Of a DNA stretch of 64,000 nt, positions 39,067 through 60,500 are shown one piece after another. A program made the translations under genes and the position numbers. The notes under the pieces are model-generated. The model was not told where the DNA came from and searched no databases. It was given only the letters and a program-made list of their open reading frames with translations. The stretch spans positions 14,446,001 to 14,510,000 of the forward strand of contig CM060731.1 of assembly GCA_030704615.1 (NCBI GenBank), in the 5' to 3' direction. Source of the DNA: Takakia lepidozioides (Eukaryota; Plantae; Bryophyta). How positions within the stretch are numbered: position 1 is the first letter of the stretch; each line of letters opens with the position of its first letter.

Positions 39067-39579
39067 CCTTTTTTTTTTTTTTTTTTTTAAGAAACAATGT
39101 ACAAATAAAGCGTATGCATATGATCTAATAGTATTTTTGCCTGATTTAAGCAGCGTAGGCTCCTCTGGCATGTTCCAGCTATTAAATCTCTCTCACTTTG
39201 TCTTACTGCAAATTCAATATTAAATACTTTAGAATGTGAGAGTTTGTCAGATAGTGATGAGTAGCTTTTTAGTAAGGTGATGGTAAATGGAGGCGATGAG
39301 GTGGAAAGCTTAATTCTTGATGGGAAGCAATGTCACCCTTGGCTTCTATGGTTTGTGTCACCCCTTTGTATTGTGTAACTCATCTTAGTCCATTTTAAAC
39401 TTAGCCAAATTTGGACTTGGTCAAAATTTGAGACCAAGTTCCCAACACTTCACTCTTGCACTGAATGGAATTATACTTCACGCCGTGTAAACCCATCTTA
39501 TAACCTTGACTGGGGTTTACACACTCTCTCTTTCTAATGTATTGTCATCCGTAATAAAACTACACTCCCTTCAATTCCA

Positions 39580-41712
39580 CTAGGGTATCCTGTGTCGTTG
39601 GCCCAAGTGTCCAGTGTAATTTAAGTCCAAGTGCATATAGACCCTCCTGTTTTGGAGATCTAGGCCTAGGGTAGCATGTGCCATTGGCCCATGTGTTAAG
39701 AATCAAAATGTAAGCTCAAGTGCAATCCCCTATGTATCCAAATGCGTCTCCTATGTTAAGGCCCATGTGCGAAAAATTGAAATCTAAGCCCATGTGCAAT
39801 CTCCTATGTATCCAAGTGCTTCTCCCATATAGAGGCCCAAGTGTAATCCCCCGTGCATCAAGAGACCCTGCAGTTTGGGAGATCTCATTGTCATTGTTCC
39901 AACAATGCCCATTTTGCTATTTTTGTTGTCGAGGTTTTATATATTGAGATATTCACTTTGCTATTTTTCACGAATTTCCAGCGACCAAAAGTACTTGAAA
40001 TTCCAAATCTCCCACATGAAGGGCCAATCACTGCTCCAAGAAAGCCCATTTTGCTATTTTTCGCGAATTTCCGGCGACCCAAAGTACTTGAAATTCCACA
40101 TCTCCCACACCGCGGGTCCAAAAATTATGAGACCAACCTGGTGCACCCCTCCTCATCGAGGGCTTTCCAACGGCACCAAGCACTAGGGTTGGGCCCCGCC
40201 GTTTGGGAGATCTCAACGACGCTACAAAACAAAACAAACAAATAAACAAACATCTCGCTTCATATATTGACTAGGGTCGCCTATGCCGTTGGCCCAAGTG
40301 TCCAATGTCATCTAAAGTCATCTAAGTCTATTCATTTTTTTTTCCACAGAGCCTACGACCAGATTTGAACCGGAGACCTTTCCCTTGATATCTCGCATGT
40401 CGAGGCTCCAATCATTGTCCAGGGACCAAACATACCATTTCTCATTATTATTTTTCCACGGAGCCTACGACCAAATTTGAACCGGAGACCTTTCCCTTGA
40501 TATCTCTCCTGTCGAGGCTCCAACCATTGTCCCAAGAATGCCCACTTTGCTATTTTTCCCAAATTTTCGACAACCCAAAGTACTTGAAAGTCCACATGAT
40601 CTCCCACACCGCAGGTCCAAAAATCATGAGACCAAGCCCGTGCACCCCTCCTCCTCAAGGGCTTTCCAACGGTACCAAGCATCAGCGCTGGGGCCTTGTG
40701 GTTTGGGACATCTCAACGTGACAAAACAAACAAAACAATACAAACGTCTCAATTCATATGTTGACTAGGGTAGCATGTGTCGTTGGCCCAAGTGTCCAGG
40801 GTCATGTAAGCCCAAGTGCAATCTCCTATGCATTCAAGTGCGTCTCCTATGTCTAGGCCCAAGTATGACCTCTAGAGTAGCTTGTGTCGTTGGCCCAAGT
40901 ATCCAATGTCATCTAAGTCATTCAAGTCTAATCATTTTTTTCCACGGAATCTACAACCTGATTTGAACCGGAGACCTTTTCCTTGATATCTCTCCCGTCG
41001 AGGCTCCGATCGTTGTGCCAGGAATGCCCACTTTGTTATTTTTCCTGAATTTCCAGCGACCCAAAGTACTTGAAATTCCACATCTCCCACACCACAGGTC
41101 CAAAAATCATGAGACCAAGCCCGTGTACCCCTCCTCGTTGAGGGCTTTCCAACACTAGATGTCACCCCCCCCCCCCCCCCCCATCTGTCTCATCCTCCTT
41201 ATTGCTGGTCCACAACCCCCCAGGAGCCCTTTCACCAACATATTGATAAAATCAGACAACTTCACAAGTCGGACAAATCTACCACTCTCCTCTCTTCTCT
41301 AAATGACGAGCACCCTGGAGCTGCCCTAAGAATGCTAGCTTTTGAGTGTCATTTGTATCCAAGTGCAATCCCCTATGTATCCAAAGACCCCACTGTTTGG
41401 GAGATCTGGGATAGCATGTGTCGTTGGCCCATGTGTGAAGAATTGAGATCTAAGCCCAAGTGCAATTTCCTATGTATCCATGTGCCTCTCCCATGTAGAG
41501 GCCCAAGTGCGACCTCTAGTGTCCAATATCACCTAAGTCCAAGTGCAATCCCAAAGCCCACTTTGCTATTTTTTTGCAAATTTCCAACGACCAAAAGTAC
41601 TTGGAATTCCAAATCTCCCACGTGAAGGGCCAATCGTTGCTCTAGTGTAGCCTGTGTCGTGGGCCTAAGTGTCATCTAAGCCCAAGTGTAAGATCTTCTA
41701 TGTATCCCAGTG
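39580..41712. repeat. Mosaic satellite-like repeat, left part (target of the CACTA insertion)
   Basis: Many copies of ggcccaagtg / gtgcaatc(t/c)cctatgtatccaa, plus ~180-bp modules (cgacccaaagtacttgaaattccacatctcccacacc...gggctttccaacgg) at ~40075, 40570 and 41057. Confidence 0.85.
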
Positions 41713-41849
41713 CACTACAGGAAAAGGGGGGCCTTTGCGACGCCCGCGCCACACCACGGCCACGCCGCAGCGTCGGGAAAACGCCCTTTTCGGGCACGCG
41801 GTAGGCGCAAAATTTGCGACGCCCGGCCGTCGCCCTGCAAGCCATAATC

Positions 41850-43663
41850 ACATCATCCATAGACAGATCACTTGTGTCAGGATGAAAAAGTAGGGAATAT
41901 CATCCGTGGCAGCGCCTTACCTCCATCTAGGTAATTCTATCATTCCTCACCAAACCATCCGGTATGGATAAAAAGAGTCAATAAAAGAGGAATGAAAAAT
42001 TATCATCCTGGTAGTTTTTCATCCGGTACGGATGGAAAAACATGATGTTGTTGGCAACCTTCATAGAGGTAATTCTTTTCTTCCATGGTGACTCATCCGG
42101 TATGGATGAGAGTCAATAAAGGAGGAATGAAAAGGCCAAAAGAACCATCCTAGAGGTAATTCAATGTCCAACCTGGTGGCTCATCCGGTATGGATGAAAA
42201 AGCCTGATAGAGGATGAGAAAACAAGAAGTCAACACTGATAGCAAACTGCCAATTCCCAGTAGAGAGGGAGAGAGAGGGAGAGAGGGGGCAACAATGAAA
42301 AAAAATGGGTTGGGGGGGGGGGGAGGTCAGATGGTGGGGTCAGCTGCAGCATATGTCCAACACCAGATATCCTAAGTTAATCGACTCTATATCTTGGAAA
42401 CGGGACCGCCCACCGATCTGTCAAACAGGCTAAGTCCTGGCAGAAGACAGTAGAAGAGATTCTCAAGGACCTGGACCTGGAACCGCAAGTCTTTACCCTG
42501 CTGGATAAATCTGACTTAGAGGCTGTAGTGTCCAACCATGTCTGTTGCCATGAGATTGTCTGATGAAAATGAAGTTAGGCAAAAAACATCCCTGAACTTG
42601 TTTCCAGTCAGTGACATGGGGGAGGACATCTTGGATGACCTCAAGGGTCTACCCACTCTCGACACTAGACTGAAATTTAAACTCAGGGCAGGAAGCCTAC
42701 CTTTGAACAGCAAACAAAAGCAGAGAGGAAAGGGAGAGTGCAATTGCCCGTTGTGTGGGCAATCTGAAGACAATACTCATTTTCTGATACATTGTCCGGG
42801 GTTCTCTCACCAAAGAGACGCTCTTTTCAAATCTATCAAGGGAATTGTGCATGTACCTCTGTTTACTAACTTTGAAAAAGTCGAGGCTGAGCCAAAAGCC
42901 CAGCCCCTTCTGAGGCCTAGTTTTTGGGCATCTCACACACAGAAGATTGATGCTTGTGTGAAGGGATTTGTAGAGGAAATCTGGAAAACCCGGATTAATT
43001 CTATATATGAAGGTAAGTCTTACTACCAACGTTAGCCCCTGATAGAGGTAGGATCTGTCCCTTTTGTTTCCCCAAGAGAGGGGGCAACAAAGAAAAACAG
43101 AGAATGTGTGGGGGGGGGGAGTGACTGAGCAGCAGCAGCTGCTCAGTCACTCCCCCCCCCCCCCACCTTCTTTTCTTCTCTTTGTTGCCCCCTGATGTCT
43201 CCCTCTCTCTCCCTCTCTCTCCCTCTGGAAACTGGGTTTATGGAATTGTCATCCCGACTTCCATCTTTGAGAAAATTGAAAAAATTGAAAAATTGGGTTG
43301 CAGGGAATTTTGGATGTTTTTTCATCCAAAATACAAATCTTTCCCTAGTGAAACATTTCTTCACTAAATACCTGTGAGGTGCAAAACTCCCGTCAGTCAA
43401 TCCAACCTGGATGAAAAAAAGACTTCATCTGACAAGACCTAAATACGGGGCAAGACGGGTATAAACCCCCGATGTTTTTCATCTAACCTAGATGAAATAC
43501 AGACTGCATCCGTGGAGTTCAAGACGGGATAAATGCACGATGTCTTTCATCTTCCGCAAATGAGAAACGGACAACGTCCATCGGGCGTACAGGCTGGCGG
43601 ATGTTTTTCATCCTGGGAAGGATGAATGACAGGCCAGATAGGGGAAAACCTTGCTCAACCCTA
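41850..43663. mobile_element. Nested insertion in the left CACTA arm: DNA-transposon-like remnant with CATCC-N5-GGATG palindromic repeats
   Basis: Repeated tcatccggtatggatga-type motifs at 41.85-42.22 kb and 43.30-43.63 kb. Ends gctcaacccta (reverse complement TAGGGTTGAGC, hAT-like). No partner TIR seen. Confidence 0.45.
42351..43075 (+). mobile_element. 3' fragment of a non-LTR retrotransposon with a C-terminal CCHC finger (RTE-X/L2-like)
   Basis: MSNTRYPKL..SWQKTVEEILKDL, then RLKFKLRAGSLPLN..CPLCGQSEDNTHFLIHCPGFSHQRDALF..FVEEIWKTR, ending at the stop at 43035. Confidence 0.7.
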
Positions 43664-45093
43664 ATGTCTTTCGTTTTGCGCTGCAAGAGCGCGCGCGATG
43701 GCAGCTTGGGAGGAGCAATGGTGCTCGTGCTGCAGATACCTTGAGCTGCCAATCCTTGAGTGTTTATGGCTCCTGTGAGCGCCGCCTAGGCGGGCTCTTT
43801 AAGGCGATGGCGGTGGCTTAGAGATGAGGGAAGATTCATTGTCTCAATTGTCTATTTTTTTGCTGCACAAGGGAACCACGGCAGTGATGGCGGAGGTACC
43901 ACCTGCATGCTTATGACGTTTCCCTAGGAGCCCTCCTCTGGATCTTTGATGAATGGCAACGTCTTGGTAGAAAAATGAAGTCTCTCTCCCTCCCTTTATA
44001 AACCCTACCTTTTGAGACCAAGCTCTTTTTTCTTGTGCTTGGCAAGACTTTGCTTTGGTTAAGGTAGCAGTGTTGTGGTGCTGGCGGAGTCCTCCCTGCA
44101 CGGTTAGGCTTGTGGAGAGATGACGACTCTCCCCCAAACAGTAAAAAAGGTTCTTTTTTTCTGTTTAATTTGCTTCCCTGCTTTCTTTGGCATTCTATGC
44201 GCTTAGATTGAAATGTATTTGACCTCGATAGCAAGTGTGGAAGCCTACTACTCACCTCGTGCATCCTCACTAACTCACAACGCGTTATGGTTGTTTTTGG
44301 GACGGGCATAGGTGAGGGCTTCCACTTAATATTCTGATGTCTAGGTGCTGCTGGATGCCAAGTGGGATTGCAGAGCCGAGGAAGGAATTGCTTGCCAGGG
44401 ACTCATCTTAAAATGCTGAAAAACTAAACTACTCTATGGTTTTTCTTGATCCTACCTCTTTCATTCCTTGATTTTTCAAGAACAAGTGTAATGTAAAAAT
44501 GAAGATTGTGACGGCTGACCGTCATTTCTTGCGACCCCTGGCCCCATAAATAAAAAAACACGTCGCCCCGTGCGACGGCTGTCCGTCGCGGGGTGCGACC
44601 CCCAGGTAAAGAATATAAAAAAAATCGTCGTCCAATGCGACGCCAGGGTGTCGCAGGAGGCAACGGCCGGCCTTTCTAGATTCAGGGTTTAGGGCCTTTT
44701 GGGTTTCTTAGTTTTTTTTTTTTTTTTTTTTTTTTTTCCCATATGGTACTGGGTTAGGGTGTTTGCTTTTCTTTATGGTGCTGGGTTTTGGATTGGCGGT
44801 TTTGGTTGTGGGTCTTGGGGTTAAAAGGATAAACGGTGTAATTAGGATTCACATACCCAAAATGTGGTTCAATCTGATAATCGCAAAGCGCTGGGTCTCA
44901 ACAAATTTTTCCATAGTGTGAGCATCCTGAAGATAGAACGAGAGGAAGGATTTATTGTCTTGGGCTCTAGAACCATAGGTATGCTCCGCCTTTGGTTATC
45001 AATTTTGAAAGCCCCGAGGCTGAGGCATAGGGTTTTTTTGCCAACGGTTTTTGAGAAATGAAAGTGTTGGTGGTGTGTGTTAATTGGGATGGG

Positions 45094-48000
45094 ATGGTGA
45101 GGAAACATTGACCCGTCTCCCTCGAGGATGGGGAGGTAGTACCACATATCGATTGTGGCCCTAGAGCGACCATTTTTCATGGCGAGGAGGCACCCATTGC
45201 ACCTGATCCAATACAGGCTGCCGGGCACAATCGTAAAAGGGACCGGGGCCAAATTTCAGGTGATGCGGAGGATGTTGACACTCCGGGATCGAGTCGGGCG
45301 CGCCGCGGGTTGCCCCTCGCGGGCCACCCCGTCCAACCACATCCATCTTTGACCCCCCGACAGGATTGAGTGTTAGTGCACTAAGTGTTGGGAATGGATA
45401 CCGCCGGGCGGCACCAGACCACCGAGGCGGCGACCGCATGTTGTCGAAAAACATTACAAGAAGAACAAGATTGCGGATGCGGCAACGGTGAATGTTCTTC
45501 CCACCCCTCTCATTAACATTCATTTAAGGTACATTTAGGTTTATCTAATAATATAGTATGATTGGTAAGTATACATGAATCAAAATTACGACATAAGTAT
45601 TGATGCGTCGTTCACTACGCACATTGCAGCCACGACTTGATGCCCAAGCTCGCAATCACATTGCACATGAGGCATTTCGCGCCGGTCTACTTGCAGAATT
45701 TGTGCCAGAGCATGTGCCCGATGTGACCAGTTGGTTCCCCCAGCAGCACGTAGATGAGATGCGTAGGGTCGAGGGGTATCATAGGTGTCGTAGGCGTTAT
45801 GGTCGGCGACGAGTAAGCCCACCCCCCCCTCCAGTTTCCTCAGGCGCCCCCCCTGATTGTGGCCTCCCCCCCCCCCCGTCTGTTTCTTTGCCTAATCCAC
45901 CTCCGGTTGTATCTGATCCGGACGTTGTACCCCCGGCTGCACCTCCGACATTACATCCTCAACCACCTCCACTTTCATCTCCTCTGCCTACAGTACCACC
46001 TCCACCACCACCTCCACCTCCACCTCCACGTGCATGTGCCCCCCAAACCCCTAGGAGGGGTTGGCTACGCCCTAGGTTTCCTCCCCTTCGGCTTGGGCGG
46101 CCTGAGCCGGATTCTCGTCCCCGATGGGAAGCGCATATTACTATGTTATTGAGGACCGTCCAGCCTCGTTGTTGGGGGAATCATCTCGACCCTCCCACCC
46201 CCATCCGAGAAAATGTGGAGTTCGAGTATTGGGGGAGACGGTATGTTATGAGAACCGCTACAGACCTTGGTTTATTCACGGTCAATGATATTGTGGTTCC
46301 TCCTCGGAGAAACAACATGGTGGACTTGTTTCCCTACTACGGTCCATACTACACCTCCGCGGAGTTCCGTACATTACGCCTCGAAGCCCCATACATCCTA
46401 CCCTACATTTTGTGTGTCAACGGACAGGATGTACGTAGACGGGGGTTGTCTCCCATTGAGATCAGATTTTTTGATGGTGACCCCAGCATCTTCGGCAATG
46501 TTGCTGGGCTGGTCAATAGTTCTTTTGGTCATCCTAGGAGAACCAATGTAGTATGGGACGAGCGAAGCGATGGGCATGAGAGCTTTTGTGGTCATACGTC
46601 AGTATACTGTGAGGGGATGCACATGTTTGTGATGACATGTGCTAGTAGGACTATTAGGGCTGGCAGCGAACTATTTGCATCATACAAGTTCTCCCGGGAT
46701 GATTGGGACCTCCAATTACAGCGTGAGTGGGATGTGTATGATAGAAATAGGGTTCTTTTGAGACAAGGATTGCGTAGAGGGGCATTGTAGATATTCTCAT
46801 GATGTACTTTGTATTCATCCGATTAATCGATTGGTGTAAATTTTCTCTTGCTGCTCGTGTGGGTTGCAACTTTGCATATGTGATCTAAACATACTTATGC
46901 ACATGTGGACCAAATATGAGCTTGAACCAAGTTGATTCAATGGGTCATTCTAGTGTTGAATGCAGCTACGTGTCATAGAGACGGAAAATTGTGTTTCGCC
47001 TGCAGATGATTTTTTTTTTAATTCCATTTTCAAGCCATATGCTTAATGATAGCATATGCAATGTGCGTGCAAAACTTGGGAGTAAACAAAAGTCATTTGG
47101 ACCCATAACCAGATTTTGTTCTCTCATTTATACTCCAAAGTTCAACTTCATGCACTCTTTATAGAGAGTTCTGCAAAAGTGACCCTAGAAACACACTTTT
47201 TTTTTTCCATTTTTTTTTTGGTCCCATTTTTTGCATGGATGTAGTGGTGCAAAGCCCGATGTCACAGAACAAATAGAGCTAAAAATAAAATCATTACGCC
47301 CCTCAAAACCGCATATATTTTCTAAATGCAAATATTTATTTTAAATTCATTTAAATTCGATTTAATTCAAAATTGGTGCAAGGGTGAGTGCGTCGTTGGG
47401 GAGGCAATTTTTTTTTTTTTCCTGCTGGATCTTTGTACAGGTGTTGCACACATATTTAAGCACATGTAGGAAAAAATGAAGCTTGAGCCACATCCGTTTG
47501 TTGGGTGCAATGGCATGAGAGGATTTTCTTTCACATTAATAAACAAAAATTGGTTGATAGGGTGAATGCGTCATGGGGGGGGGCAAATGATTTTGTTTGG
47601 GTTTGAAACTTTGCATGCGTGTACGTTGCGCATATACATGTAATTATTGAATGACATATTTGATGCACACACACATTGAAGGTTGTTGTTTGCATTTCGC
47701 TTATAATGAAGTGTATGGTTGCAATGACACATTATAATATATGTCTCTATGTTCATTTGTTCGTATCAGGACTTTGTCCATCCCTTCCCGGTCTTTTCTC
47801 TTGGCATCCCATCCGAAAACAACCCAAGTACATCAGGCGGGAGCCGTGGGCGAGACGCCGCCCCCACGGTACCGGACGATGATGACGATGACAGTGATAG
47901 TGATAATGACAACAACAATGAGCATGGAATTAACCAGGAGGATGTGCAAACCATGGAGGATCTCTTAATGCATCATGTGGGCGCTGATGCATCCCATGAA

Positions 48001-51000
48001 GAGGGAACCCGACCAATCGATGATCCTGAAATGGCCCCCTCAAATGACATGGAGAGGGAGGCGAGAACTCCCTTGTACGAAGGGGCGAAAGTGAGTCGAC
48101 TTTCAACAATCTTACTTTTGCTCAATCTTTAAATTCGATTTGGCATAAGTAATGTTGGGATGTCTGCCATAATGCGAACTATTGCAGACTATATCCTTGC
48201 TCCACACTTGAAACCCAAGATGCCATGCTCGCGGAAAGAGGCGCGCGAAGTCTTGGACTCTGTGGGGATGGGCTATAAGATTTTTCATGCATGTCCATGT
48301 GATAAAACCTTATACTACGGAGAGGATTCGCATCTCACCAAGTGCCCAAAGTGCAAGAAAAACCGATATCGGGATGATGTCCAAGGGAAAAAAGTACCAC
48401 GCAAGGTATAAGCGTCATTCTCCCTCGCATGGAGATTATTTTCTTTAATCTTCTCAATGTATGTAAAGTGTATTCCACAAAGTTTAGGGTTTAGAGAGTA
48501 GTACTCATGCAAGATCTGATTGTGGTTTTGGAAGGAGTGAGTGAGGAGTGGAAAGAACGACGTTTGGTTTTGACCATTCACACCCAAATGAGGGAGAGGC
48601 TGCATAAAGGGAAAGACATAAGGGTGTTGTATTATGTGTGCTAATGGGATGATTACATGTGGGGGGCGTGGGGTATTTTATCCTAGAAAATGCATTACTT
48701 TCCGATCATCCCGCGATTGAGGGCGCAGTACCGAAGCCCCGAATTGGCCAGACTCATGAGATGACACGCCTCGCATCGGAGCCCCCCGGGAAAGGTGTGC
48801 GGGCCACAAGATTCACAAGCATGGAGGCATATTGAAGAGATATGGTCTTTTCTCTTGGAGGACCCACGACATGTCCACCTCGGCTTCTCCTCAGATGGGG
48901 TCAACCCATTCTCTGTCCAGTCATGTAGTCATTCCACTTGGCCGGTGACCATGGTGAATTACAACATCCCTCCGTATCTTCAATTAAAAAAGGCCATATC
49001 ATGTTGGCTGCCATTGTGCCAGGTGAGTGTACTCATTTCATGTTTATTATTGCTTTCAACTTTATATTAAACTTCTGATCTCTGACGCAATTCGGATGCA
49101 AGATTGATGAGTGACATAATCATGGAGTAAGACGTGTAATTCATTTTGTAGTATAATTTGCATATTGGTGAAGCATTGAAACAATGATGTGAATGTCTCA
49201 TAGGGAAAAAACAAGTGACAAACATGGACACGTACTTGCGACCTCTTGTTGATGAACTTAAAGAGCTATGGAGGGGGGCCCCGGCATTGGATGCTTCACT
49301 TGACCCTATGGCCGGACAATCTTTTCAGATGAGAGACATCTTGCTTTGGACAATGCATGATTATCCAGGTATATTATGTTCCCCATGAACAACCCGCGTA
49401 CATTCACTTGTCAATGTCGGATAATATCGATGAGGATTGGGATTGATTGAAGTAGCGGCGACAGTCTTGTGCACCGTAGTGGGGTAGATGGCATTATGGG
49501 CCATGCACATGACAACTTTTGTTTTTGCTAATGTGGCGGGATGTGTTGTACAAGACTAACTGTTTGCTCGGGGCTAAGCACCAAAGGGTACCATGCATGC
49601 TTGCATTGTGGCGATGATCTTGATGCACATAGCTCCCGCCATCTTCACAAGATGATGTATCCCAACTACCGCAAATTTCTTCCTATGAGCCATCGATGGA
49701 GAAGAAGAGAGAAACACTTGTTTGATGGCAAAGAGGAAGTACCCCCCCCCCCCCCCTATGACACCGTCCGGGCAGTTTTGGGAGGACCGATGGAAGGAGG
49801 CCCATGCGGGCACGGACGGTGAAGTGGACGTGCCCGACATGAAACGATTTTCAATCTTCTACGAGTTGCCATATTGGGCAGTACATATTCCACAAAAACA
49901 CTGTCAATATCCCTATGCATGCATGTGATATTGCACATTTGGTATGCGTTGCATTGTCACTTTCACGTAAAAGAATTTGTGTAAGTCTTTGTGGGTGGGG
50001 ATATATGTAGGACCTGAAGATTCGCCATCTTCTAGATCCCATGCATATTGAGAAGAATGTCTGTCGAGCTCAACGGAACGAGGGGGTGTCCAAGGGACAA
50101 ATTGCTGATTCCCCGGGGTAGCGCCTGCTGCGGGGTCGCATGCGCCATCTATGGGCCGAACAAAATGGTGTGGACCCAAAGGGTGTTGTACGGTGGAAGT
50201 ATAGAAGCGCACCTTGGCAATGGACAAAGGAGGAATACAAGAAAGTGATAGCCATCATAAGTGCTGTCCGAACACCAACTGGTTATGGGTCATCCCTCCG
50301 TACGAAGTTCAGCGAAGAAGATGGGGTCCATGGTTTGAAGTTTCATGACTACCACAATCTATTGCAAGACATCTTGCCCATTGCAGTACGTGGGACATTG
50401 ATTCCCGAGGTTCGTGAGACAATCTATAGATTGGGAGGCTTGTTCTGGTGGATTTGCTCCAAAGAGTTGGAAGAAGTAGATTTTCCACGTATGAAGAAGG
50501 AGGCGGCGGAGGTAATGTGTATGTTGGAGATGCACCTTCCTCCCTCCTTCTTTGACATCCAAGTGCACTTGGTAGTGCACTTAGTGGAAGAGGCTTCGAT
50601 TGCCAGCCCCATTCATTCTCGGTGGATGTACTTCCTTGAGCGTTATATGAAGACTTTGAAAGGATTTGTAAGACAAATGACGCACCATGTAGCATGGTGG
50701 AGGGGTATACGTTGCAAGAAGCTATGTTCTATTGCACGGAGTACATGACAAAGGTGGATGAGGAAGCCCCTCGGACGTGGAAGGAAGAGGAGGATGCACG
50801 AACCAATGACATCGTTTTGCCCAAAAAATCGAAGAGGGTAAAATTGCCGACCTTGGTGATTGAGCAAACGCATGACTTCATACTGAAGAACACCCCATCC
50901 ATACATGAGTGGGAGAAAGATACAATAATCTAGTTCAACAACGAGAGGAGGAGACGTTTGCATGGAGGCGGAACCATCCAAGGCCGGTTACTAGACGCCC

Positions 51001-51952
51001 ACGACGAGGAGCGGGCCGCCGGCATGTTCCTTCACAAAATTTGCCCATGGAATTGCCGCCTATAAGTTCATTCCAACAGTGGTTTCGGACTTCAGTTTAT
51101 GACGCCGTTGCTCAAGGAGAGGTGATTTCAGATTCGGTGCAAGACATTGCAAGGGGCCCATCTCAATTCGCGACCTCATACACGGCGGTTTGGATTCACG
51201 GTCGTCATTTCCACATTCATGCTCTTGATATGAAGCGTAAAACAACCTTTGATTCTGGCTTGTGTGCCACATATTGGCAAGACTCTGTGTGGAGCAAGGG
51301 AGATACACGACCTGCTATGAGCAAACATGAGTACATTGGAGAGCTTGAGAGCATACTCCAACTTCAGTATACAAGGTACCGGCCTCTTCTCTTCAAGGGA
51401 AGGTGGTTTCAGCCACATCTTGTGGGGCCCTCCGCAACACTAGTGCAAGATGATTGTGGTTTCATGCGCGTCAATGCAGATAGACTCAACCCTACTCATC
51501 GTCCCTCCGATGAGCCTTTTTCACGGCCTTCAGACATGGAGCAAGTTTTCTTTTCCGATGACAAAACAAGAGGGGGGAATTGGAAGGTGGATGTGCATGC
51601 TCAGCCAAGAGGAAGACGTATCTATCATGGTCTCGGATCTCCATGGGGTGAGGCAATTGCGGTGGATGGAGAAATTGGTCATAATGATGCTGATGATGGA
51701 GGTTGGGTAGAGAGGGTAGAAGAGGATGATGACGCCCCAGACAATGCATCCTGGACCCTATATGATGAAGCTCTAGAAGATACGGATGTTGGGGAGGGAG
51801 ACGAAGACACGGCCATTGACAACGAGGTGGAGAATGATTCGGAGGTGCCTTTTGAGGGTCGGGCCATTTATGACGATGACACCGATGACCAAGAAGACTT
51901 GCAGCTTGATGAGGATGAAGAGGCGCCGGATGATGATGTTCAAGTTGATTAG
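45094..51952 (+). pseudogene. CACTA transposase (TnpD/Tnp2 type: transposase-associated Zn motif, Transposase_21, DUF4218, DUF4216), decayed
   Basis: Exon 1 ~45094-45487 (EC*CTKC..VEKH); 47770-48405 (ARTPLYEG, HACPCDKTLY, CPKC); ~48686-49022 (YFPIIPRL, LGFSSDGVNPF, STWPV); 49204-49368 (MDTYLRPLVDELKELW, WTMHDYP); then GYHACLHC, SIFYELPYW, LDPMHIEKNV, GLKFHDYH, PPSFFDIQVHLVVHL, RWMYFLERYM, LFKGRWF, DEPF..MEQVFF and an acidic tail. Several stops and frameshifts. Confidence 0.92.
45603..46790 (+). CDS. Intact SET-domain protein (putative lysine methyltransferase) with a basic N-terminus and Pro-rich linker, inside the CACTA
   Basis: Uninterrupted 395-aa ORF. SET motifs in canonical order: DLGLFTVNDI (~46263), YYGPYY, FFDGDPSIFGNVAGLVNSS (~46494-46523; NHS changed to NSS), ASRTIRAGSELFASY (~46641-46685; terminal Tyr kept). 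No post-SET Cys cluster. Confidence 0.8.
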   Translation: MRRSLRTLQPRLDAQARNHIAHEAFRAGLLAEFVPEHVPDVTSWFPQQHVDEMRRVEGYHRCRRRYGRRRVSPPPPPVSSGAPPDCGLPPPPSVSLPNPPPVVSDPDVVPPAAPPTLHPQPPPLSSPLPTVPPPPPPPPPPPRACAPQTPRRGWLRPRFPPLRLGRPEPDSRPRWEAHITMLLRTVQPRCWGNHLDPPTPIRENVEFEYWGRRYVMRTATDLGLFTVNDIVVPPRRNNMVDLFPYYGPYYTSAEFRTLRLEAPYILPYILCVNGQDVRRRGLSPIEIRFFDGDPSIFGNVAGLVNSSFGHPRRTNVVWDERSDGHESFCGHTSVYCEGMHMFVMTCASRTIRAGSELFASYKFSRDDWDLQLQREWDVYDRNRVLLRQGLRRGAL

Positions 51953-52194
51953 ACACAAAATCAAAGCTACATAACAATTCTCACACCGAACTGGACCCAT
52001 CCCTTCGATTGATTGTACATGTACATCCATATTGTACTTTATTTCTATGATTCATCAAATATGGCTGTGGCTGGTAGTTTTTCAAGAAAGAAGGCAGAAG
52101 CAATGAATATGTTGGAGCAACATATACAGATGTGGTATCAAGAGAATTATCAAAATGAATGTCACAATCTACAAGAAGGTCCACAACAACAAGC

Positions 52195-52896
52195 TAAACC
52201 ATAAAGAAAAACAAACACCCTACCCCAGTACCATATGAAAAAAAAAAAAAAAAAAAACTAAGAACCCCTAAATGCCCTAAACCTAAACCTAGAAAGCCCT
52301 GCCGCCGCTGCCTGCGACCCCCACGCGTCGCAAACGGCGACGACCAACCGTCGCTATCTGCGACCTGTTTTTTTGAATGGATTTATGAGGCCGGGGGTCG
52401 CACACGGCGACGGCCAGCCGTCGCAAACTGTGACCCATTTTTTTTTTTTTGCAAGAATAGGGTAGCCGGGCAGTTTGCGACGCCCGGCCGTCGCAGGGGC
52501 CTTTTGCCCTTCATGCCACCATGCGACGGCCTGGCATCGCAAGAAAGGGCTGCGATGAAAGAAATGGCAAGAAAGGGTTTTTTTTTTTTTTTTTTTTCCT
52601 TTTTCCGGCGTGCGACGAGCGGCCGTCGCCAGAAAGGGCTGCCTTCTGCCCTTCGCTGGGGGCGACGTTTGGGCGTCGCACGGAAGGGCTGCCATTTGCC
52701 CTTCATCACTCTGTGCAACGGCCAGGCGTCGCCGCCTGGCCCCGGCGCTAGGTGGCGACCCGCGGGGTTTGGCTGCGACGGCCCGACGTTGCAAACACGC
52801 TCCGCGGGGTTGGTGTCGCACGCTCGGCGCCACGCGGGGCGTGGGGGTGCGGCTGGCGTCGCAACCCCCCCCCCCCCCCCCCCATTTGTTGTAGTG
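52195..52896. repeat. Right long inverted terminal region of the CACTA
   Basis: 52195-52345 (ccataaagaaaaacaaacaccctaccccagtaccatatg-polyA-ctaagaacccctaaatgccctaaacc...gcgac) is the reverse complement of ~44625-44780. TGCGAC/GTCGCA repeats continue to the TIR. Confidence 0.85.
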
Positions 52897-52899
52897 GTG

Positions 52900-54230
52900 C
52901 GTCTATGTCGAGGCCCAAGTGTGACCTCTAGGGTAGCCTGTACCCTTGGCCCATATGTGAAGAATTTAGATCTAAGACCAAGTGCAATTTCCTATGTATC
53001 CCAATGCGTCTCCTACATCGTCGAGGCCCATCTAAGCCCAAGTGAAATCTTCTATTCATGTATCCAAGTGTATCTCCCATGTAAAGGCCCAAGTGTCTAG
53101 TAGTGTCATCTAAACCCAAGTGCAATCTCCTATGTAGCCAAATACGTCTCCGATGTCAAGGCCGATTTATTTTTTCCCATGAGTTATTGAGTATTAATAT
53201 ATCATTATTGATATATCTCCCGTCAAGGCTCCAATCATTGGGTAGCCTATGCCGTTGGCCCAAGTGTCCAATGTCATCTAAGTCCAAGTGCATCAATATA
53301 TGAAGCAAGCCATATCTAATCATTTTTTTTCCACAAAGCCTACGACCAGATTTGAACCGGAGGCCTTTCCCTTTATATCTCTCCTGTCGAGGCTCCAACC
53401 ATTGTCCCATGAATTTCCACTTTGCTATTTTTCGGGAATTTCCAGCGACCCAAAGTACTTGAAATTCCACATCTCCCACACCGTAGGTCCAAAAATCATG
53501 AGACCAAGCCCGTGCACCCCTCCTCGTCGAGGGCTTTCCAATGGTACCAAGCACCAGGGCTGGGGCCTCGAGGTTTTGCACATCTCAGCGTGACAAAACA
53601 AACAAACATCTCGTTTCATATATTGACTAGGGTAGCCTATGCCGTTGGCCCAAGTATCCAGTGTCATTTAAGTGCAATCCTCTATGTATCCAAATGAGTC
53701 TCATGTGTCGAGGCCCATGTGTGAAGAATTGAAATATGAGGCCAAGTGCAATTTCCTATGTATCCAAGTGCGTCTCCTATGTTAAGGCCCATCTAAGCCT
53801 AAGTGCAATCTCCTATGTATCCAAATACTTCTCCCACATAGAGGCCCAAGTGCGACCTCCAGTGTCCAGTGACATCTAAGTCCAAGTGCAATCCCATATG
53901 TATCCAGAGACCCTCCTGTTTGGGAGATCTAGGCCTAGGGTAGCATGTGCCGTTGGCCCAAGTGTCCACTGTCATCTAAGTCCAAGTGCAATCCCCTATA
54001 TATCCAAAGACCCTCATGTTTGGGAGATCTAGGCCTGGGTAGCCTATGCCAATGGCCCATGTGTGAAGAATTGAAATTTAAGCCCAAGTGCAATCTCCCA
54101 TGTATCCATGCGCCACGTCTCCATGTAGAGGCCCAAGTGCGACCTCCAGTGTTCAATGTCATCTAAGTCCATGTGCAATCGCCTATGCATCTTGAGACCT
54201 TGCACTTTGGGAGATCTCCACGTCATTGTT
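52900..54230. repeat. Mosaic satellite-like repeat, right part
   Basis: Same ggcccaagtg/gtgcaatc motifs and the ~180-bp module (~53445-53620) as in 39580-41712. Confidence 0.85.
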
Positions 54231-57200: not shown

Positions 57201-57597
57201 TGCACTTTTGCCCTGGAGGTGCCCGAGACTGGGAACAACATAGGTGTGATGTGAGGGAGAGGAAGGAGAGGTGGCCAGAAAAGCTTGTTTTGATTAGTGC
57301 TCCAATACACAGAAATAAAACTTGATGAGTGTCAAGCCTGATATGGATTGGCGGTTGTTTGGGCAGGAAATTGGGAAGTTGGTGTAGTCAAAGCCTACCT
57401 CAGTGCTTGCTTGAGAGTATTCTCAGGAGAGCCTTACCAGGTTTTTGGGATCCAGAAATTGTCTCCAAGGAGAAGGGCTGGCATTACAGGGGTTTAATCG
57501 TATGCTATTGAAATTAAAGGTAGTTGTTGCAGCAGTGTTCTAGGCCACAAGCCAGGTAACCACGTGTAGAACCTAAAGCACACTCCTTCCAGTAATA

Positions 57598-60500
57598 ATG
57601 ATAACATCAGAGAACCAAGATTTGGTACGATGGGGTCTCCATTTGCTTGATGGCAGTACAGCCGTGATACATGATACAGGGGGAACTGACGAGAACTCCT
57701 CAGTAAATGAGGCGCCTGGAGTGGGTTTGGAACTTGAGGCTGACCCCTCTAGTTGCATGGCACCCCCACAGCGCCGTTCCAGCACAGTTGCGAATGATGC
57801 GATCATTGCACAGGCATTGCAAGAGGAGTTTGAACGGCTAGCTGCTGTTGAAGCTGCTGAAGCCAGTCATGTGACTGCCCGTGATAACAAGAAGTTGCAG
57901 GTACAGTTTTGGTTTTAGCCTCAGCATTTGCTTCAGTTTTATGAGATGAAAATGATGTATGTAAATTGAATGGATATTTGGTTTAGAGGGGTAGGAGTCC
58001 TTGTTTGCTTACGTAAGTTCGGTGCTTTCACATAACTTTAGGAAGTGATGTGTAAGATGCATCTGGAGGACTGATCTTTGATGTACGTGAGCTTTGTAAG
58101 CTATGTCTCACTCCTTGGACCTTTCTGAGGCACGAAGTGGTATGTTCTCAGTCCTGATACCATCCACTGGAGAAGGTAGTTCTCCTTATCCAACATCAAT
58201 GTCCAGGTATCCTAGATCACAGTAATCAGACCTGTACACATCATACTGTGACTTCAAGATTGGGAATCGACTTATCTTAGGTTTATGTTTCTCATATCCC
58301 ATCTCAGCGGTGTACCGATGCTGTGATGACTCCATGGGTAAGTTTAGCTTTCTGATAAGTTGTGAACTGATGCCGTTATGTGTAGAGCATGTATCAAAAA
58401 GCACACTGACCTCCTCAACTGCTACTTCTCACATTCTCCCCTGTCAAGAAGCTTAACTTACCCATGGAGCCACAGTAGTATCAGTACACAGTTGATAGCA
58501 GACAGGAAAGGAGGGGAGACCTGAGATAAGCGAATTCCCAGTCTCAAATAATCTATTTCAAGTCTAATCTTTGGTCCTAAGCAAACCTTCCCAAAACTGG
58601 AAGGTGACATCTTCTCCCCCTTTAAGATTCAGATGTATAGTCTACAATCTGTAATTCAAAAACCTGCAGATTTCAGATTAGCTAGTAGCTTCTTTCAGGT
58701 GTCTTGCTTTAGGCTGGGACTAAAAAGGAGCAAACTCACTAGTTGAGAATCCTCACAACCATAAGATGATGCTAGCCTCATTCCTTGCACATGATTGGGT
58801 GTAGAAGGTATGTGGACTACGGAAGGATGGTGTCCAGAAAACATAGTAGAGAGATAGGGTGTTACATACTCGAATAACAGGACAGGAACCACATTGGGGG
58901 AAATGGACTCTGGCCAGGTGACCATCCGCATGTGCGATCACACGAATGAGGAGATGGAGTGGCAACAATGGTCCGGAGCCCCTTCAAGCTCAACTCATCA
59001 GACTTCTCCATATCAATTCGATGACGAGGACCGACAAGTTGTGTTGGCACTCTCTGAGGACTTTCCACAAGTTGATAAGGAGGTGGCAAGGCGTCTGATC
59101 ACCCTCGACTCTATACCAGTGAGTGGTTTTTGCTCACTTGTGCTACAGGCGTTTTCTCCAGTTACCCAGATTTGATGTTTGTTGGATCAATAGTTTCATT
59201 CTGTCTCCAGAGCTTTCAGGATGTAAAGGCAAGTTTGATTTCAAATGATTGTGACCGTGATTTTGATGATTGTTGAAACTGTTGAGATGTGTGTGATGCA
59301 CTCTGTAGCATATCCCAAGGATGAATGGAGTTATTCCCACAATGAATGATGCATCAGTAGACCACCAACGGTTGCTGGACAGGTGACAGAAACTTGACAT
59401 CTACCCTTATGTTTTAAGAGTCTAAATGTGACAACGCTCTCCTTCACAAACTCTTGCCAACAATATTAGAAACCAACACCGCATGCTGGGTTTGTAGTGG
59501 CAGCAGACTCCTGTAGCTCTGCATTTAAACCACATAGCAGCTGCTTGCAATGAGAGGAAGCATCATCTGCTGTGTGGGATGGGTTGGAATCAGATTGCGT
59601 CTGTATGGGTTGACTGAGCAGAAAATCAAAGGTGATGGCAATTGTCAGGTTAGGCCTCTCCGTCCTGCTGTCTCATTAATTCTACTGCTACAGTTGCTTG
59701 CTAAGAGGTGACAATTTTACTCGTTAAAACTGGGGTGGTGACCTCCTTCCCGATGAGTAATTTGGCCCAACTGGAAAATACTTCATAAGTATGCCATATT
59801 TGATGATCTGGTAGTTTCCATACAAACGCTTCAGCAAATACACAAGAATAGGTGGAAAGTTTCGGAAACACTCGACAGATAAAAATAGAGTAGCCATAAC
59901 CAAATTTTCTGGTGGTAATGCCATTATGCTGTTACTTATCAAGCACTACAAAGTAGAAAAAGTTTTATATCGTCCCTGAAGTTGCGGAGAGCCTATGAAA
60001 CACAAGAATGGCAGTAAGAGACAAAGATGAAAAAGAAAGCGGCTGTATAACATCCAGGAGTGGATTGTTTTTTTACACATGAGAACAGTGTCCTTCTCAT
60101 TTTCTCACCTACTCCAGAGTTGGTTCTCTTTTCTTCATTTAGATCTGTGGGCGGCCCAAAAGAGCCCAAGGGACACATGTAGAAAACAAAGAGAAATGAA
60201 GTGATACCTCATCTTCTACGGAAAGCCCAAAGAGCTTATGGGACAAGAGAGAGTGGGGCACTGCACGAGCAGCCCAAAAACAACTGTTGATCAAGAGTGC
60301 ATACCTCATATAGTTCTGCTGCTAAGCATTGCTCTCGTAATGGAACCTCTGTGAGAGATTGGGTATCTCGGAATAGACAATAGTGTCTTCCACCGATCTC
60401 ATAGTAGAAAGGACAGTGAAGAAATTTTCTTCACTTTCGATTTCCCTCCTGTTCTCCCTGGCTCAAGTGCGGCACAGGTGGTCCTCACTATGTAGGTTGT

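Follow-up and report, generated by a model that had tools for sequence, protein, structure and literature searches.

The window, a 64,000-nucleotide stretch of the Takakia lepidozioides genome, contains a broken copy of a CACTA (En/Spm) element whose forward strand carries, in order, a Cys/His exon, a SET exon and a transposase body. The features referred to throughout are listed here by their positions in the window.

41713..52896, + strand: CACTA (En/Spm) element, broken copy, 11.2 kb, with ends CACTACA...TGTAGTG
41710-41712 and 52897-52899: 3-bp target-site duplication GTG, on both flanks of the CACTA element
44503..44779, no strand assigned: inner 5' subterminal region, an inverted match to 52198-52451 with GCGAC/GTCGC-rich repeats
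44980..45087, + strand: possible 5'-UTR intron ahead of exon 1 (a hint only), with a donor-like AG/GTATGC at 44979/44980
45094..45487, + strand: exon 1, coding but disrupted in the window copy, with a C-x-C-x2-C...H motif whose first Cys is at 45371
45488..45629, + strand: phase-0 GT-AG intron, 142 nt, 66% A+T, skipped in contigs of related copies
45630..46790, + strand: SET exon, terminal, with a Pro-rich linker followed by the SET core (~46190-46695)
45488..47769, + strand: putative first intron of the transposase isoform, 2282 nt long, with the SET exon inside it
47770..51952, + strand: transposase body, broken, with Transposase_21, DUF4218 and DUF4216
~47770-48405, 48687-49022, 49204-49368, 49553-49880 and 50011-51952, + strand: predicted transposase exons, approximate, with boundaries taken from the sequence
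52198..52896, no strand assigned: 3' subterminal repeats and terminal inverted repeat

The CACTA...TAGTG terminal inverted repeats are present at 41713 and 52896, and the 41713-52896 element carries the subterminal repeats expected of the CACTA superfamily: the two subterminal regions (44503-44779 and 52198-52451) match each other in inverted orientation at 81% over 155 nt, and GCGAC/GTCGC words number 20 in 52191-52896 versus 7 in the 7.4-kb interior. A local repeat family with units of 40-220 nt lies on both flanks (39549-41703 and 52893-54226). For evidence beyond the window we used contigs from two public runs (X1 and X2), the RNA nature of which is the tool's guess and which cover small shares of the window; among the joints listed, contigs bridge the approximate empty site from 41712/41713 to 52903, indicating that the CACTA element was inserted into another repeat. 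The segment at 41840-44500 (2.6 kb), which separates the 5' terminus from the inner subterminal region, is free of GCGAC/GTCGC words, has short ATCCGGTATGGATG-type repeats, and likely consists of nested insertions by which the 5' subterminal region was interrupted. An insert of ~960 bp at 42264-43226 is bounded by inverted repeats of 31 nt and contains a hairpin (43079-43193) as well as an ORF that weakly resembles zf-RVT (E 0.035). The contigs of greatest depth in X1 and in X2 match this insert, which may be a small TIR element carrying a LINE 3' fragment; deep, diverged contigs of both X1 and X2 also match 43846-44246. Elsewhere in the window, two similar exon-like ORFs (57577-57918 and 58858-59175) share an A-x-A-L-x-E motif, which we take to be one seen in plant OTU-family proteins, and had no match in Pfam.

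The transposase body matched Transposase_21 (E 1.5e-21), DUF4218 (7e-23) and DUF4216 (6.4e-5, under the cut-off) in Pfam and is interrupted by several stops and frameshifts between 47770 and 51952. The copy in the window is itself broken, and the model developed below concerns the family's relatives. The interval from the transposase stop to the 3' repeats of the element leaves no room for a TnpA-like gene, and the two ORFs in the element's 5' 2.6 kb gave no Pfam match of note; the SET product is therefore the sole second product that we found.

The initial annotation of this DNA had proposed that a single Cys/His first exon is spliced from one donor to either the SET exon or the transposase, and the splice sites that it named were recovered at the positions claimed. 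The donor (ACG/GTGAAT at 45487/45488) is in phase 0 with respect to the C-x-C-x2-C frame. The near acceptor (cacattgcag/CCA at 45629/45630), also in phase 0, reads into PRLDAQ and 386 open codons up to the TAG at 46788-46790, and the far acceptor (cgtatcag/GAC at 47769/47770), again in phase 0, is followed by 120 open codons until a premature stop. The short intron has both the length and the A+T richness attributed to it. The ATG at 45094 is only a candidate start codon for exon 1. Exon 1 had been described as carrying stops and a frameshift, and it does have stops and a broken frame; the single net frameshift, however, is probably the result of two slips, since contigs of relatives have one extra base each at 45312 and 45352 compared with the window. 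One of the stops (45374-45376) falls on the x of C-x-C, and the Cys-to-His loop is 21 residues long in the window versus 13 in relatives. Against an HMM built from the exon 1 of four relatives, exon 1 of the window scored 12.7 bits, as high a score being reached by none of 200 shuffles. Downstream, four pyrimidine-preceded YAG sites lie between the SET stop and 47900, only one of which (47769) opens a long phase-0 frame. Two strong donors are present in 46791-47700 and neither closes an ATG-started exon, which rules out another coding first exon in that interval.

Contigs aligned to 45050-48050 derive from related copies and not from the window copy, and they include three joints. In an X2 contig, 45485 is joined to 45628 with 142 letters skipped and 58 letters on the short side; moved two places to the right, this joint is the predicted GT..AG intron, the exon of that copy ending in AG instead of CG. 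A second variant, found in X1 and X2, departs from the window at 45455, continues through 30 diverged letters (the same count as the exon letters replaced) and rejoins at 45628. Two sequence variants from two studies thus use the exon 1-SET junction (45487-45630), and placement of the 45629 acceptor by chance is ruled out by its presence in these contigs. The third joint, from 45293 to 45347, is a 53-letter skip that lacks splice ends. One X1 contig (45362-45716) traverses the intron and has small deletions over the exon 1 donor; the related copy behind it has lost the donor and keeps the intron.

The metagenome scan for the SET family returned three loci, of which L002 has a short upstream sequence and L003 is a bacterial-type SET. 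L001, which is 45% identical to the SET query P0011, shows an ATG at 650 and an exon of 78 codons containing C-H-C-T-K-C-x13-H; next comes a phase-0 GT-AG intron of 111 nt with stops inside, followed by a SET frame (Pfam SET 1.4e-5) that stops soon after the terminal Tyr. The locus ends 5' of any transposase, and its DNA is too diverged from the window for the alignment to be of use. The exon 1-SET intron is therefore old: the near acceptor is used in relatives and its intron is kept in this distant locus, so that the contrary outcome considered in the initial annotation, an acceptor at 45629 that is not conserved or used, can be set aside. Among 74 proteins bearing the SET motif, the Cys/His motif and SET are found in one chain in four, of which three are Riccia sorocarpa gene models and the fourth derives from a Logan contig. 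Most of the others start 3' of the Cys/His motif, which is what gene calls on unspliced DNA would give.

SET domains are recognized by the motifs G-x-G, Y-x-G, N-H-S and G-E-E-L-x-x-x-Y. The SET of the window was below the Pfam cut-off (E 0.044), and its relatives P0001, P0016, P0066 and L001 passed it. An AlphaFold2 model of the SET core, made with 36 sequences, had a pLDDT of 80.9; its best Foldseek matches were SET8 and SET7/9 (E about 1e-5), the ESM Atlas match for the core was to SET clusters (0.95), and a family profile search placed LegAS4 first, with EZH2, MLL and SET8 matched more weakly. The family's terminal exon is accordingly modeled as a predicted SET fold, and we have not filed its product as TnpA. 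Across the 36 sequences, the second Gly of G-x-G, Y-x-G, N-x-A-G-x-x-N-S, G-x-E-L and the terminal Tyr are kept, and the family retains the Gly, Tyr and Asn positions that SAM binding and catalysis would require. A lysine methyltransferase serving the element is the likeliest role for the SET product. The window copy may itself be dead, given the ~6 residues that its sequence lacks from motif I, including the first Gly of G-x-G; seven of the nine listed SET-core differences from one relative change the residue, as expected for a decayed copy, and give no sign of selection. A single-sequence fold of the full-length relative P0003 had a pLDDT of 33 and was discarded.

Of the 60 SET relatives, 30 were looked up, and every one of these that carried a species name was a Riccia sorocarpa model, apart from a single Ginkgo model. 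Six of the Riccia models (P0001, P0002, P0034, P0052, P0066 and P0115) are named "SET domain-containing protein" and are likely CACTA parts and not host genes, a warning for annotation, as many such Riccia gene models are likely transposon parts. The Ginkgo biloba protein (P0054, Gb_21150) is a member of the SET family in a gymnosperm, has a Cys/His-rich N-terminal half of another kind, and may be a domesticated or still mobile copy.

Exon 1 of the relatives reads C-x-C-x2-C-x13-H, which agrees up to the His with the C-x-C-x2-C-x13-H-x4-G pattern looked for and has the same spacing as a Citrus CACTA transposase with PF13963 at residues 3-75. We scored the relatives against three flowering-plant-type blocks with the Cys columns excluded, and all four exceeded every one of the 17 control C-x-C-x2-C sites; shuffles with Cys fixed equaled their scores 2, 94, 113 and 185 times of 5000. 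The window's own block, in the ungapped test, was equaled or bettered by 2240 of 5000 shuffles because its loop is eight residues longer. An hhalign comparison of exon 1 with the PF13963-type domain gave E 3.5e-4 and a probability of 37%, with profiles of four versus three sequences. The match to Pfam Transpos_assoc (PF13963) for which the initial annotation had suggested a scan did not materialize for exon 1 of the window (in two readings), L001, P0003, P0010 or P0034, and the control P0095 matched at 1.4e-21. ESM Atlas gave no usable match for the exon-1 domain of one relative. Exon 2 of the window aligns to the Citrus transposase only from residue 114, leaving the transposase body of the window without an N-terminal domain, and exon 1 is the only C-x-C-x2-C-type motif upstream of exon 2 on the + strand outside the nested insert.

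We looked for further transposase N-termini in several collections. A DUF4218 query returned 32 proteins, of which four, all Citrus models, reached the N-terminus, and none of the 32 had an N-terminus of bryophyte type. A search of genome contigs gave five transposase loci (L004-L008), two of which have the N-terminal motif, look flowering-plant-type and were used for comparison; these five loci are plant CACTA transposase DNA within five bacterial genome assemblies and are probably host contamination. Word-based searches for longer proteins with the SET core or with exon 2 returned nothing at E 0.001, and there was no match in the viral collections searched.

Taking motif spacing, position and phase together with the lack of another coding first exon, exon 1 is likely also joined to 47770, and it is in this sense that we infer the label "transposase exon 1." No contig joins 45487 to 47770; X1 and X2 have no coverage of 47777-47978, and this is a blank and not a result. 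Among the joints listed, one X1 contig that starts at the exon 3 acceptor (48685) carries 208 further unplaced letters, a hint of spliced transposase RNA.

If exon 1 instead belonged to the SET gene only, transposase transcripts would come from a promoter of their own or begin with a non-coding exon further upstream, with a splice to 47770; translation would start at an internal ATG and leave out the Cys/His domain, and the two products would share just a leader or be tandem genes, as in several Arabidopsis EN/SPM families. The contigs of both runs, which begin at 45087-45088 with unplaced 5' letters, would fit such an arrangement, as would the AG at 45086-45087 of one relative, the donor-like site at 44979/44980 and a similar one upstream of the L001 ATG; a 15-nt motif from the contigs' loose 5' letters had no above-chance match in the window. 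In-frame ATGs do precede the conserved part of exon 2, and split-gene layouts are described in the available part of PMC13547354. We nevertheless regard this arrangement as improbable, because the flowering-plant transposases examined (P0095, L005 and L007) begin with a Cys/His N-terminal domain, because 47769 shares the phase of the exon 1 donor and the first in-frame ATG comes only after ~55 open codons, and because a Riccia model that reads ...LQ/GFDPP at the start of exon 2 hints, from the protein alone, at phase 0 there too.

Five Riccia sorocarpa models (P0002, P0029, P0051, P0066 and P0113) run from SET into transposase exon 2, and could be taken to mean that the SET exon is a cassette with an internal donor to exon 2, giving an exon 1-SET-transposase fusion of the SETMAR kind. 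The joins are made at three different places, however, and all of them cut before the SET terminal Tyr, a frequent fault of ab initio models; the remaining SET homologues in the alignment and L001 stop soon after this Tyr (two homologues stop short of it), and the window has no donor-like phase-0 site 3' of the SET core. We therefore read the five models as gene order, SET then transposase, that has been kept in Riccia, and consider a fusion very unlikely. A different objection concerns the function of the SET exon, which might be a passenger picked up by the element or a scaffold without catalytic activity, spliced yet bringing the element no enzymatic benefit. The His of N-H-S is absent from the family, and part of motif I is missing from the window copy. 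Yet 60 representatives with <50% mutual identity keep the SAM-binding and catalytic columns, LegAS4, the best PDB sequence match and an active histone methyltransferase, likewise lacks the His, and the intron and its phase are kept in the distant locus L001; this makes a useless SET exon unlikely.

The layout that we consider probable is thus one in which the Cys/His exon 1 is joined to the SET exon or, skipping the SET exon, to the transposase. Of the original claim that SET is a second product made by alternative splicing, the exon 1-SET half was observed in relatives, and the exon 1-transposase half we infer. A single transcription unit would start, probably, near the inner 5' subterminal region (44503-44779). 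Use of the near acceptor (45629) would give a short mRNA ending inside transposase intron 1, where AATAAA occurs at 47284 and 47538 as candidate signals, and this mRNA would encode a protein of ~517 residues composed of the Cys/His domain, the Pro-rich linker and SET. Splicing to the far acceptor (47769) would instead produce a long mRNA for the full transposase. The shortness of the near intron may lead to an excess of accessory over transposase mRNA, as in maize. The SET product would most plausibly write a mark that counters silencing of the element, and the domain encoded by exon 1 would recruit it to the element or to the transposase. We hold this anti-silencing role as a possibility a little short of even. 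More doubtful is the broader proposal that, in CACTA elements of non-flowering land plants, the transposase N-terminal domain and a captured minimal SET of non-plant class form a self-targeted histone writer replacing TnpA, with acceptor choice deciding how much the element is marked and how much it jumps. That proposal would also give the uncharacterized transposase-associated domain a role in targeting. If the layout is correct, it would point to a function for the N-terminal Cys/His domain of plant CACTA transposases. TnpA-like proteins or domains are confined to flowering plants according to the available parts of PMC13547354 and 10.64898/2026.08.24.746577, and a SET protein built on the transposase first exon is a concrete candidate for the means by which CACTA elements of other land plants handle host silencing.

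SET cargo on transposons and alternative splicing of CACTA units are both already known, and a coding exon common to SET and the transposase was not found in the literature searched; we found no land-plant CACTA element with a SET exon that shares the transposase first exon, and Repbase or preprint supplements may hold such elements. In the available part of PMC4158355 there was no word match for moss, Physcomitrella or Selaginella. Helitrons and HarbingerS carrying SET are cited in the available part of the red-algal (Bostrychia) preprint 10.1101/2025.02.11.637652, and Phytophthora HarbingerS and MuDR families that carry SET genes in that of PMC12730594. Like the present element with its predicted SET fold, these are DNA transposons carrying a gene for a SET lysine methyltransferase, but, as far as these sources describe them, they belong to other superfamilies and hosts, and their SET genes are accessory genes and not an alternative transposase exon. 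Closer in superfamily is Plavaka PAG2 of red algae (EnSpm/CACTA), which also has SET and is proposed to be a chromatin modulator (10.1101/2025.02.11.637652). It is set apart, by its description in the available part of that preprint, as an accessory gene of its own that combines an N6-adenine methylase with SET in a three-gene cassette, with no mention there of a shared exon, whereas no Pfam methylase family was found in the window ORF or in full-length relatives. At the level of the domain, the minimal SET proteins SET8/KMT5A, SET7/9 and LegAS4 are the best fold or profile matches and, as here, have no pre-SET or Cys-rich post-SET; identity to them is 12-18%, and the substrate is not readable from these matches.

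On the layout proposed here, the element would also resemble maize En/Spm and Arabidopsis EN/SPM3 and EN/SPM7, in which, according to the parts of the sources available, a CACTA transposase and an accessory protein come from one unit by alternative splicing, and the TnpA-like accessory proteins act against the silencing of the family to which they belong; both alternatively spliced CACTA units and variants with split genes have been published (PMC13547354; 10.64898/2026.08.24.746577). The analogy with maize En/Spm drawn in the initial annotation would hold for the production of two proteins by splicing, but the nesting is reversed: in maize Spm, the transposase ORF lies inside TnpA intron 1, and accessory transcripts outnumber those of the transposase about 100-fold (PMC2613891, in part), whereas here the SET-fold accessory exon lies inside the presumed intron 1 of the transposase. 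Maize TnpA binds DNA via tandem HTH motifs (10.64898/2026.08.24.746577, in part) and not via a Cys/His domain like the one seen here, and the accessory product of the present element, unlike that of En/Spm, takes a coding exon that resembles the transposase N-terminal domain.
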